64,000 nucleotides of DNA. Source: Candidatus Magasanikbacteria bacterium RIFCSPHIGHO2_01_FULL_41_23. Its GTDB lineage: Bacteria; Patescibacteriota; Patescibacteriia; Magasanikbacterales; UBA922. Shown here one piece after another: positions 31,922 to 33,907 of the stretch (position 1 is the first letter of the stretch; the number at the start of each line of letters is the position of its first letter). Below the pieces are notes generated by a model, which was not told the origin of the DNA, searched no databases, and saw only the letters and a program-made list of their open reading frames with translations. Made by a program: the position numbers and the translations under genes. The stretch covers positions 1,801-65,800 of the forward strand of contig MFPT01000019.1 in the NCBI GenBank assembly GCA_001782805.1. The letters run 5' to 3'.

Positions 31922-31950
31922 TTGACATTTTTTAAAGTCACTGCTATAAT
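31922..31950 (+). promoter_or_regulatory. Perfect consensus sigma70 promoter (TTGACA-17-TATAAT)
   Basis: TTGACA at 31922-31927, exact 17-bp spacer, TATAAT at 31945-31950, about 25 nt upstream of the small Cys-rich ORF. Confidence 0.6.
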
Positions 31951-31975
31951 CGCGGTTCATTAAATATATTATTTT

Positions 31976-32095
31976 ATGCAATGTCAATCCTGCGCCAAAT
32001 CCACTACCGAAGACACAGTATGTCCGGACTGCGACACCTGTGAATCCTGCTGCGGCTGTCGTGGCGCCATGGATACGTCAAGTGACGATGAATAA
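31976..32095 (+). CDS. Small Cys-rich acidic peptide (39 aa, 9 Cys: MQCQSCAKSTTEDTVCPDCDTCESCCGCRGAMDTSSDDE)
   Basis: ORF not in the supplied track (under 60 aa). Perfect promoter upstream. An AT-rich hairpin (AAAATTCC-13 nt-GGAATTTT) lies between it and the downstream ABC exporter. Confidence 0.45.
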   Translation: MQCQSCAKSTTEDTVCPDCDTCESCCGCRGAMDTSSDDE

Positions 32096-32146
32096 TAATG
32101 ATTAAAAAATTCCGCAGTCAAACTGGGGAATTTTTTTACCAAAAAT

Positions 32147-33907
32147 ATGAACTCCCACATCAAATCTACCGGCAAAATTTATTGGCGTTTTATCCGCCAA
32201 AATCGTTGGAGCATGACGGTGGTCATGGTACTTTTGGTTATCGCCAACATCGTAAACCTGATGCCGCCGATTTATTTTAAGAAGTTGTTTGATGCGATTG
32301 CGAATGAATCTGAGCTGATAATCATGTTCCCCATTTTGTTGATGGTCGCGGTTTTTTATACGTTTGACTGGATACTCTGGCACACCGTTCGCTTTATCTT
32401 AAATGTGAAACAACCGAAAATGATGGCGGAAATTGAACAATATTGTTTTTCTTATTTGCATAATCATTCCATTGATTTTTTTCAAAATAATTTTGTGGGC
32501 TCTTTGGTTAAGCGCATCAATCGTTTTGTGCAAGCGTTTGAGCGCATTATGGATCGCTTCTTGTGGAATATTTTGCAGATTTTGGTGGGCACGATTGTCA
32601 TGATTGTAGTTTTGTGGTCGCGCAATCCATGGTTGTCATTGATCATGATAGTCTGGATTGTGCTCTACAGCCTCATGAATATTTGGCTGATTCGTAAAAA
32701 ATTGCCCTATGATATTAAACGCAGTGAATTGGAAAGCGTTACCACGGGTTTTTTGGCAGACACGATTTCCAATCAATCGGCCGTGAAATTTTACAATGGT
32801 TATGGACGAGAAGTAAACAGTTTCAAAAAATTATTGCATCAAGTGCGCGCGGCCAAAACAAAATCATATAATTTGGATACGTGGTTTGAGGGAGCGCAAA
32901 CATTTTTAATGTATGGTTTGGAAATTGTCATGTTATATGGCGCGCTTATTTTGTGGAAACGCGGGATTTTAACCATCGGCGATTTTGCTTTGATTCAATC
33001 ATATTTGTTGACTTTATTTTTGCGCATTTGGGATTTGGGAAAAATCATTCGTGGTATTTATGAAGATTTGGCCGATGCCAAAGAAATGACGGAAATTTTG
33101 GAAACACCAGTCGCGATTCATGATGCGCCAAACGCTAAACCATTGCTAGTTCCGAACGGCGAAGTATTATTTCAAAAGGTAAGTTTTGCGTATAACAGCA
33201 CGCGTACTGTGCTTAAACTTTTCTCTTGTGTGATTAAGCCTGGTGAACGCGTGGCTTTGGTTGGACCATCAGGCGCGGGCAAGTCAACTATTATTAAAAT
33301 TTTGTTGCGTTTGTACGAAGTTAGTGCGGGTAAAATTTTCATTGATGAAATAGACGCGAAAAAAGTAACTTTGGAAAGTTTGTGGGGCGCCATGAGTTAT
33401 GTGCCGCAAGAAGCATTACTGTTCCATCGTTCCATAAAAGAAAATATTCGCTATGGCAAACCGGACGCGACTGACGATGAAATAATTGACGCGGCCAAGC
33501 TCGCGCATTGTCATGAATTTATTTTGGAATTATCCGATGGATACGATACGTTGGTGGGCGAACGCGGCGTGAAATTATCCGGCGGTGAACGGCAACGCGT
33601 GGCCATTGCGCGGGCGATTTTACGTAACGCGCCTATTTTACTTTTGGATGAAGCCACGTCCAGTTTGGATTCTGAATCTGAACATTTGATTCAGTACGCG
33701 CTTGAGGCCGTGATGAAAGGCAAAACCGTGATCGCCATTGCGCATCGCTTGTCCACGATTATGCATATGGATCGCATCATTGTTTTAAAAGACGGAAAAA
33801 TCGCAGAAGAAGGGTCGCATAACGAATTATTGCAAAAAGAAAACGGTGTTTATCATGGACTCTGGAGTTTGCAAGTCGGCGGATTTTTGGGCGGGGATGA
33901 TGAATAA
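32147..33907 (+). CDS. ABC transporter, fused permease/ATP-binding (type I exporter, MsbA/bacteriocin-exporter-like without C39 peptidase domain)
   Basis: Six-TM N-terminal domain. Walker A GPSGAGKST, signature LSGGERQR, Walker B LLLDEATSSLD. Confidence 0.9.
   Translation: MNSHIKSTGKIYWRFIRQNRWSMTVVMVLLVIANIVNLMPPIYFKKLFDAIANESELIIMFPILLMVAVFYTFDWILWHTVRFILNVKQPKMMAEIEQYCFSYLHNHSIDFFQNNFVGSLVKRINRFVQAFERIMDRFLWNILQILVGTIVMIVVLWSRNPWLSLIMIVWIVLYSLMNIWLIRKKLPYDIKRSELESVTTGFLADTISNQSAVKFYNGYGREVNSFKKLLHQVRAAKTKSYNLDTWFEGAQTFLMYGLEIVMLYGALILWKRGILTIGDFALIQSYLLTLFLRIWDLGKIIRGIYEDLADAKEMTEILETPVAIHDAPNAKPLLVPNGEVLFQKVSFAYNSTRTVLKLFSCVIKPGERVALVGPSGAGKSTIIKILLRLYEVSAGKIFIDEIDAKKVTLESLWGAMSYVPQEALLFHRSIKENIRYGKPDATDDEIIDAAKLAHCHEFILELSDGYDTLVGERGVKLSGGERQRVAIARAILRNAPILLLDEATSSLDSESEHLIQYALEAVMKGKTVIAIAHRLSTIMHMDRIIVLKDGKIAEEGSHNELLQKENGVYHGLWSLQVGGFLGGDDE

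Follow-up and report, generated by a model that had tools for sequence, protein, structure and literature searches.

Does a short, cysteine-rich open reading frame (ORF) lying between a consensus promoter and an ATP-binding cassette (ABC) exporter gene encode a protein of its own, and is that protein tied to the exporter? The question is raised by a locus in a window of Candidatus Magasanikbacteria (Patescibacteria, or candidate phyla radiation, CPR); the window is the whole 64-kb stretch of DNA that was analysed, and all positions refer to it. A preliminary description of this DNA had reported a perfect TTGACA-17-TATAAT promoter, an unannotated 39-codon ORF followed by a hairpin, and a 586-residue ABC exporter encoded downstream. 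Each of these was confirmed, including the exact translation of the ORF. The arrangement had been likened to loci for bacteriocins or for ribosomally synthesized and post-translationally modified peptides (RiPPs), with a small zinc-ribbon or metallothionein-like protein as the fallback. This interpretation was borne out in part: promoter, peptide, hairpin and ABC gene form a conserved unit and the fallback is the better supported half, while the bacteriocin or RiPP half did not hold up.

Judging from its pattern of substitution, the 39-codon ORF is nearly certainly a functional small-protein gene. Our tentative reading of its role, which draws on analogy and which we hold to be somewhat short of probable, is that of a highly expressed metal-thiolate mini-protein, transcribed together with the exporter across a ribosome-sensitive terminator and possibly serving as the thiol or metal cargo of the exporter.

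The peptide gene and its relatives

The peptide, which contains the segments MQCQSCAK, STTEDTVCPDCDTCESCCGCR and GAMDTSSDDE, has cysteines at positions 3, 6, 16, 19, 22, 25, 26 and 28, that is, eight and not the nine counted in the preliminary description; the spacing given there, CxxC-x9-CxxCxxCxxCCxC, was correct as written. Cysteine makes up 21% of the residues (8/39), compared to 0.68% in 28 long ORFs of the window, and there are nine acidic and two basic residues in a chain with neither a hydrophobic stretch nor an aromatic core. Three in-frame stop codons in tandem, TAA TAA TGA (32093-32101), end the ORF in the window; the relatives have a single stop.

Relatives were gathered by searching the GTDB genomes and a large protein collection for orthologues of the ABC protein, and then reading the DNA upstream. 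Relatives of the ABC protein in GTDB, from metagenome-assembled genomes with names indicating groundwater, assign the window to Candidatus Magasanikbacteria. Ten further full-length peptides of the same kind, referred to as type A, are now available (L001, L058, L059, L061, L062, L063, L066, L070, L071 and L078), and the type A peptide of L060 is cut at the end of the contig. Type A peptides are 39-41 residues long, and the frame and the cysteine pattern are kept in all of them. An alignment of nine variants gave the family motif C-x2-C-x9-CPDC-x2-CE-x-CC-x-C, followed by an acidic tail, with M1, C3, C6, E12, D13, C16, P17, D18, C19, C22, E23, C25, C26, C28 and D38 as the columns invariant among the nine sequences. 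A second kind of peptide (type B) occupies the equivalent slot before a sister clade of the ABC gene in L003 and L075/L076. It is 43-45 residues long and acidic, contains 11 cysteines (24-26%; for example MEKCSKCEISLEREGENCICNESVCSSCCECDSSCGCECKLES), and shares M-x-C-x2-C and C-x2-CC-x-C with type A. With 11 type A and 2 type B sequences, the family appears to be confined to a subclade of Magasanikbacteria.

The check proposed in the preliminary description, conservation together with dN/dS, found the ORF in frame in at least ten other loci and under strong purifying selection, so that non-conservation no longer stands as an objection. Between the window and L001 the ORF shows 10 synonymous differences and 3 in non-synonymous codons, all of the latter within the last four codons. 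Over codons 1-30, the Nei-Gojobori method counted 8.0 synonymous differences from L001 and 0 non-synonymous ones, and dN/dS was 0.04 against L058; in distant pairs synonymous sites are saturated and the cysteine motif is still kept. Peptide identity between the window and L001 is 95%, with 98.7% for AtpD and 90% for TypA, and on 8 contigs from different samples that carry an identical ABC gene the region 31900-32150 is identical as well; ERZ27254845 and SRR3989342 are among the samples in which this population occurs. Purifying selection at the level of the amino acids is the mark of a protein that is translated and selected, which neither a chance ORF nor an RNA element alone would bear. An antisense or alternative-frame ORF was also considered and was rejected, since the substitution pattern fits the + frame alone.

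Stored gene calls skip the peptide on every related contig. Public calls on contigs identical to the window contain a spurious 60-residue ORF (32098-32280) that overlaps the terminator and the ABC start, and they begin the ABC gene 24 codons late, dropping 32147-32218 and giving 562 residues as against 586. An exact look-up of 10 peptide variants in 15 billion proteins found none of them. Neither a word-indexed search of 5.8 billion proteins with the 40-residue L001 variant nor phmmer with the peptide against 1.84 billion representatives resulted in a match, and searches of Pfam and NCBIfam with nine members at permissive thresholds (E up to 10) identified no family. A scan of JGI metagenomes with the aligned peptides of the window, L001 and L003 returned nothing; with the nine-sequence peptide alignment, one match was obtained in 241 million records, namely L071. 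A match in a scan of viral contigs (L087) was rejected as a chance CPDC motif within a 348-residue protein. We found nothing in the literature on cysteine-rich small proteins with ABC transporters in CPR bacteria.

Promoter and terminator of the peptide gene

The promoter (Table 1) scored 12/12 in a promoter scan and contains an extended -10 element, with TG at 31942-31943 and a spacer ending in TGC. Perfect copies of TTGACA-17-TATAAT occur twice in the window, at 31922 (peptide gene) and at 33939 (before typA), and sites with at most one mismatch number 7 in 64 kb, as against 0.75 expected from shuffles. TTGAC[AT]-17-TATA[ACG]T is present upstream of the peptide start in 11/11 type A loci, with TGn directly 5' of the -10 element in 10/11, and the distance from promoter to start is about 25-30 nt in most of them and greater in L001. 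Such a near-consensus, extended -10 promoter would drive the peptide gene, and peptide and exporter would together constitute a two-gene transcription unit.

The 5' untranslated region (UTR) shows some features of its own. A motif, CCACT(T)AAATAAT, lies between the -10 element and the start codon in L058, L061, L062, L063, L066, L070 and L071; the copy in the window (31951-31975) is degenerate, TTCATTAAATAT. A Shine-Dalgarno sequence is absent before the peptide gene, the ABC gene and typA (31960-32150 and 34015-34030), which start in A/U-rich sequence. In contrast, L072, a relative without the peptide, has AAAGGAGG ahead of its ABC gene.

The hairpin between the two genes resembles an intrinsic terminator. 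In the window it has an energy of -15.2 kcal/mol (z = -4.7), with 0/200 shuffles equally stable; 8 nt separate it from the stop codon of the peptide gene and 9 nt from the start codon of the ABC gene. Relatives have stronger GC hairpins followed by U6-7 at the equivalent place, and then ATG, in the loci where this is readable; energies range from -12.6 to -21.8 kcal/mol, with a weak hairpin of -5.2 in L078. The stems of the relatives (CCUGC/GCAGG, CCCGC/GCGGG, UCCCGAC/GUCGGGA, CCGUCC/GGACGG, CCGCAG/CUGCGG, GCCUGCAG/CUGCAGGU and CCUCCGCC/GGCGGGGG) differ in sequence among loci, which indicates that it is the structure itself that is conserved. RNAalifold returned no consensus for the MAFFT-aligned terminator regions because the stems are not alignable by sequence, and folds of the individual sequences were used. 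The stem follows the stop codon at a distance of 0-9 nt in type A loci, except in L078 (13 nt), and where the region is readable about 6-12 nt separate the end of the U-run from the ABC start codon; in type B loci the spacer is longer, at 75-100 nt. In minimum-energy folds of 10 whole leaders, the terminator was an isolated local hairpin with no shared alternative or antiterminator pairing.

We could recognise no promoter belonging to the ABC gene itself in the type A loci. In L008, L010, L011 and L019, which have no peptide, extended -10-like sequences (TGATATACT/TGATATAAT/TGGTATACT) lie next to the ABC start, just past the terminator of the upstream gene. With neither a promoter nor room for one, the ABC gene of the type A loci would, as far as the sequence tells, be transcribed only by read-through from the peptide promoter; since there is no terminator between atpC and the peptide promoter in the window, transcription of the atp operon could reach the ABC gene too. 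In E. coli, the leading ribosome represses almost completely a terminator that lies a few base pairs past a stop codon. At the tR2 terminator, placing the stop codon 5 bp instead of 28 bp before the terminator reduced termination from about 90% to less than 10%, uncoupling of translation restored termination, and folding of the stem required that about 10-15 nt of RNA lie free between it and the ribosomal A site (PMC4824070). The geometry of the present family lies inside this range, so that the terminator is expected to be partial, and to leak more while ribosomes on the peptide ORF closely follow the polymerase. The outcome would be much short peptide mRNA and less of the peptide-ABC transcript. 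From this conserved anatomy we infer that peptide and exporter are co-transcribed through a leaky, translation-sensitive terminator.

The same layout may indicate that the ORF is mainly a cis-regulatory leader, in which progress of the ribosome over the cysteine codons, or stalling by a drug, sets the formation of the terminator, and with it the transcription of the ABC gene, and the peptide product is unimportant. Promoter, short ORF, terminator and ABC gene follow one another as such a leader requires, the stop lies 0-9 nt from the stem, in the range where a ribosome could repress it, and the ORF has eight cysteine codons, including one CC pair. There are also precedents. The bmrB-bmrCD operon of Bacillus subtilis is subject to ribosome-mediated attenuation by three alternative stem-loops, a terminator among them, inside the ORF (PMC4191407). 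As in the present locus, a small ORF lies directly upstream of a promoterless ABC exporter, with an intrinsic terminator between the two and with translation expected to affect read-through; unlike bmrB, the terminator here lies past the stop codon, there is no alternative pairing, and the peptide is under strong purifying selection. Leaderless polycysteine short ORFs of mycobacteria control cysteine-metabolism genes by means of consecutive cysteine codons and an RNA duplex that conceals the ribosome-binding site belonging to the next gene (10.1101/834739). They too are cysteine-rich first cistrons behind a constitutive-type promoter, robustly transcribed in the mycobacterial case, whereas our ORF has one CC pair, fixed cysteine spacing, invariant non-cysteine residues, an exporter downstream and a dN/dS of about 0-0.04 among close relatives. 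Conservation at the amino-acid level, including E12, D13, P17, D18 and E23 along with the exact cysteine spacing, is not predicted for a leader that counts codons. The terminator lies outside the ORF, with no antiterminator pairing in the 10 leaders, the downstream gene is not one of cysteine metabolism, the type B spacer is longer, and the peptide gene persists in L071 in the absence of the ABC gene. We consider a role mainly as a leader very unlikely.

Table 1. Coordinates of the features of the peptide locus and its flanks in the window.
Feature	Position	Strand	Remarks
atpC, last gene of the F-ATPase operon	31494-31913	+	8 nt between gene end and -35
Sigma-70-type promoter, perfect	31922-31950	+	-35 TTGACA 31922-31927, 17-nt spacer, -10 TATAAT 31945-31950
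5' UTR, short, A/U-rich, without Shine-Dalgarno sequence	31957-31975	+	putative start site about 7 nt past -10
Peptide gene	31976-32095	+	39 aa, 8 Cys, net charge about -7: MQCQSCAKSTTEDTVCPDCDTCESCCGCRGAMDTSSDDE
Intrinsic-terminator-like hairpin	32104-32137	+	AAAAAAUUCC-G-CAGU/ACUG-G-GGAAUUUUUU; A/U-extended stem, short GC core, U7
ABCB-type half-transporter gene	32147-33907	+	transmembrane domain-nucleotide-binding domain (TMD-NBD), 586 aa; Pfam ABC_membrane (24-291) and ABC_tran
typA leader	33939-34029	+	perfect promoter 33939-33967, GC hairpin 34000-34015 ACGACGGGCACGTCGT, T-rich run, typA start codon

The exporter and its association with the peptide

The N-terminus of the half-transporter aligns with its orthologues from residue 1. 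The preliminary description had called this protein a type I ABC exporter, and had held that clustering with lipid or multidrug exporters unrelated to peptide export would speak against its interpretation; such kinship is largely what we found. The best match in NCBIfam was MsbA_rel, with 380 bits against a cut-off of 780. MsbA-related, glucan, lipid A and cyanophycin-associated exporters ranked first, all below their cut-offs, the CydD/CydC models scored under the MsbA-like ones and were also below cut-off, and the models for bacteriocin, NHLP and type I secretion exporters were all far below theirs. Pfam detected no C39 peptidase domain in the protein. The nearest solved half-transporters were NaAtm1 4mrn (314 bits), ABCB6 (about 308), fungal Atm1 and ABCB7, followed by Sav1866 (294 bits) and closely by TM288. 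Identity to the L001 protein is 74% overall and 66% in the membrane domain, while that of AtpD is 98.7%. Inspection for clade-specific cysteine or histidine residues revealed nothing telling; K122 and R221 are basic in both peptide-associated ABC clades. Orthologues of the exporter without a peptide are widespread in CPR bacteria; L002 and L072, both close lineages, are among them.

In a neighbour-joining tree of the ABC proteins the type A loci form one clade, in which 11/11 ABC genes have the peptide directly upstream. None of the ABC-anchored loci, 11 of type A and 2 of type B, has an insertion between the peptide gene and the ABC gene. Upstream of the pair, TrmB, a 349-residue ORF and SulP are inserted in L001 and L059, and Big_6 with two small ORFs in L066; inserts downstream of the ABC gene comprise MBL, DUF6498, SET, VTT, DUF1761 and asparaginase genes. 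In L078, the pair lies behind a DUF87/TrwB ATPase, with no atp genes in the context. The order atp-ABC-typA is inherited synteny in this class. As an observation in its own right, the interval between atpC and typA is a hotspot for insertion in Magasanikbacteria (L001, L002, L008, L010, L059, L062, L063, L066 and L075), where SulP, TrmB, Big_6, MBL-fold hydrolase, DUF6498, SET, VTT, NUDIX, LRR, ArsB-like permease and CBS proteins are encoded.

The L071 locus is built differently. It contains, in order, atpC, a terminator, TTGACT-17-TATAAT, an intact type A peptide, a terminator, a gene for a 559-residue secreted protein, a perfect promoter and typA. The 559-residue protein (positions 4230-5909 of L071 itself) has a signal peptide and no Pfam match, and a hairpin with a U-run lies just before its ATG.

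The frequent position next to atpC raises the possibility that the peptide is a small redox-sensitive accessory protein or regulator of the F-type ATP synthase. The peptide gene lies directly past atpC in the window, L003, L061, L062, L063, L070 and L071, the last of which lacks the ABC gene, and in the window it is not separated from atpC by a terminator. However, 2-4 kb of unrelated genes intervene in L001, L059, L066 and L075, there are no atp genes nearby in L078, the peptide gene has its own promoter, and the peptide resembles no known subunit or inhibitor of ATP synthase. An accessory role of this kind is extremely improbable.

Possible roles of the peptide

A content of 21-26% cysteine in CxxC, CC and CxC motifs, lack of an aromatic core and strong negative charge are typical of metallothionein-like and zinc-ribbon metal-thiolate peptides, and the cysteines of this peptide quite probably bind metal. 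The best PDB matches, both by sequence and by family profile, were C4 zinc modules (YfgJ, 2jrp/2jne) at non-significant E values of 0.2-0.9, and the likeness is thus a lead and not a test. Prediction of the peptide from its single sequence by AlphaFold2 gave a low-confidence model (pLDDT 62), too uncertain to serve in a fold search. The C-x2-C-x9-C-P-D-C spacing is identical to that of the C4 zinc ribbon YfgJ (2JNE, 2JRP), but the match spans residues 2-20 only, and the second half, C-x2-CC-x-C, has no counterpart there. With the bacterial metallothioneins SmtA/BmtA the peptide shares a very small size, the absence of a hydrophobic core, 20-26% cysteine in CxxC/CC/CxC motifs and a zinc-finger-like N-terminal part. 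It differs from them in having no Pfam or NCBIfam match, no histidine ligands and no SmtB/ArsR or MerR regulator nearby, as well as in its constitutive consensus promoter with a 17-nt spacer and in a family limited to a CPR subclade. The eight invariant cysteines would hold metal ions as thiolates, with the N-terminal C-x2-C-x9-CPDC acting as a zinc-ribbon-like knuckle pair and C-x2-CC-x-C as a second site or part of a shared cluster. A ribosomal or zinc-finger housekeeping protein was also considered, and was rejected on account of the acidic nature of the peptide and the lack of a family match.

A metal-binding peptide may be either an independent cytosolic protein or a partner of the exporter. 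In the former case it would be a minimal zinc ribbon, a metallothionein-like buffer or a small Fe/Zn redox protein without a functional tie to the pump, and adjacency would stem from promoter dependence and inherited synteny. This would agree with the retention of the peptide gene without an adjacent ABC gene in L071, with the common occurrence of the ABC gene without the peptide, with a promoter and a terminator of its own that make the peptide gene a complete unit, with the zinc-ribbon-like spacing in common with YfgJ, and with the absence of an export signal from the peptide. Against it speaks a pair that stays unsplit in the ABC-anchored loci of both types despite often rearranging flanks, that is found outside the atp context in L078, and whose slot in the sister clade is filled by a different cysteine-rich type; all three observations are suggestive only, these loci being ABC-derived. 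We regard an independent cytosolic metalloprotein, the chief alternative, as somewhat unlikely.

We now return to the tentative reading of the peptide as a metal-thiolate partner of the exporter. What the sequences show is a promoter and a terminator, purifying selection on the ORF, the lack of an ABC promoter and adjacency throughout the ABC clade; we infer metal binding, the leaky and translation-sensitive nature of the terminator, and export of the peptide. Whether free or loaded with metal, the peptide would be a thiol or metal carrier that the exporter handles, by analogy with the glutathione and phytochelatin conjugates of Atm1/HMT1/ABCB6 pumps. In the case of ABCB6, Cd(II) is bound as a tetrathiolate together with phytochelatin 2 (PMC11143254). 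Common to Atm1/HMT1/ABCB6 (NaAtm1, 4MRN) and the present pair are a homodimeric TMD-NBD exporter, for which these are the nearest solved half-transporters, and a cysteine-rich acidic peptide partner that would be able to form tetrathiolate sites. Unlike in those systems, the thiol peptide here is ribosome-made and encoded beside the pump and not produced enzymatically; moreover, the likeness of the exporter to Atm1 is barely above that to Sav1866. The parts are of known kinds, namely an ABCB exporter, a cysteine-rich metal-binding mini-protein, and a leaky terminator of the sort that sets ratios between the genes of an operon; the family itself is without detectable relatives.

Several points weigh against this reading. 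The preference for Atm1 over Sav1866 is slight (314 as against 294 bits), and NCBIfam favours MsbA-like models. Pfam and NCBIfam contain no metallothionein or zinc-finger family that the peptide matches significantly. The wide occurrence of orthologues without the peptide indicates that the pump does not need it. L071, the sole locus from the peptide-based, unbiased search, has no ABC gene between atpC and typA; the other loci were found through the ABC protein and thus show only that this ABC clade has the peptide. Since the peptide gene of L071 persists without an adjacent pump, coupling of the two is plausible rather than shown. Adjacency could reflect dependence of the ABC gene on the peptide promoter, or inherited atp-ABC-typA synteny, and homology between types A and B was not demonstrable (hhalign probability 28%). 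Finally, translation-sensitive read-through would presuppose coupling of transcription and translation in CPR bacteria.

A more specific proposal is that the lineage encodes its own thiol carrier. The unmodified, ribosome-made Cys8 peptide, with or without bound metal, would be exported by the ABCB pump as an extracellular metallophore, a metal-detoxification conjugate or a reductant, and transcription of the exporter would be gated by translation of the ORF: a ribosome at the stop codon would mask the terminator, and the pump would be made only when the cysteine supply permits synthesis of its cargo. Synthesis of glutathione is not known from CPR bacteria of this lineage. As a whole, we consider this proposal unlikely.

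In lantibiotic and bacteriocin operons such as nisA-nisBTC, too, a small structural gene lies behind a strong promoter and is followed by a leaky terminator and an ABC transporter, and the gene order of the present locus is typical of them. The peptide might accordingly be secreted through the ABC protein, either as a leaderless bacteriocin, as a RiPP precursor whose maturation enzymes have their genes elsewhere, or as a disulfide-rich effector or signal of an episymbiont. Its mRNA is expected to be very abundant, it is small enough for an ABCB exporter, and the transmembrane domain of the ABC protein is fast evolving (66% identity to L001, against 98.7% for AtpD). Unlike in lantibiotic operons, however, the peptide is acidic and has no leader, the ABC protein has no peptidase domain, and genes for a maturase or for immunity are missing. 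None of nine variants has a leader or a double-glycine motif, the cysteine motif beginning at residue 3, and a net charge of about -7 is unlike that of membrane-active bacteriocins. As the preliminary description had said, no maturase is visible: Pfam, run on about 58 of the window's long ORFs, detected no radical-SAM, LanB/C/M, YcaO, MNIO, C39 or other maturase; the related loci have none either, and immunity genes are likewise absent from the neighbourhood. NCBIfam, in which SCIFF and other precursor models are covered, gave no match; for SCIFF/ranthipeptide precursors in particular, neither type A nor type B matched at E up to 1, and the scanned ORFs of the window contain no radical-SAM gene. 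The ABC protein, which lacks the C39 domain, is a housekeeping-type orthologue that is found without the peptide. A secreted product of this sort is quite unlikely. A substrate of a type I secretion system of the repeats-in-toxin (RTX) class was considered separately and rejected: the organism is monoderm, there is no membrane fusion protein gene, and some tails contain merely a loose GxGxD.

The remaining features of the window are as follows. Upstream, the genes are arranged as atpB, F, H, A, an unknown 539-residue ORF, and then G, D and C; the ORF (27271-28890) has no Pfam match and lies inside the F-ATPase operon between atpA (25748-27244) and atpG (28928-29872). Downstream are typA/BipA and genes for a zinc-finger protein, an RRM protein and an AddB/UvrD-like helicase. 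The leader of typA has the same layout of hairpin, U-tract and ATG as is found before the ABC gene, and the typA leader of L071 (about 5966-6055 in that locus) resembles that of the window. The latter had no match in Rfam; it could act as a leader or attenuator, or else show how translation starts are commonly built in this lineage. Rfam and tRNA scans of the whole window identified no family and no tRNA gene. The gene for the zinc-finger protein (35840-36433, 197 residues, treble-clef, zf_Tbcl_2) and the 3' end of typA share 35 nt. Elsewhere, the leucyl-tRNA synthetase (8242-11133) has a NUDIX domain (residues 389-504) inserted just past its editing domain, and a 346-residue protein (49493-50533) fuses Ham1-type (ITPase) and NUDIX domains. 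Redox and metal genes at 5052-5378, 12049-13013 and 19635-23087, none of which adjoins the peptide locus, encode a thioredoxin, adjacent MsrB and MsrA, a type II P-type cation ATPase and a TerC/DUF475 membrane protein.

The locus offers a clean case of a conserved micro-protein gene, with a strong promoter, that goes unseen by the standard annotation of uncultivated bacteria. If the product is only a cytosolic zinc-ribbon protein, the finding would be a useful correction of the annotation and little beyond. If the peptide binds metals, it would represent a new minimal metal-thiolate family in CPR bacteria, a group in which very little is known of metal and redox homeostasis. Were it in addition the cargo of the adjacent pump, this would be the first gene-encoded counterpart of the export of glutathione or phytochelatin conjugates, and the placement of the terminator would be a natural one in which translation of the cargo gene licenses transcription of the exporter. 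Should the lineage indeed encode a gated thiol carrier, it would possess a gene-encoded analogue of phytochelatin/HMT1 and of glutathione/CydDC/Atm1, with a feed-forward switch.

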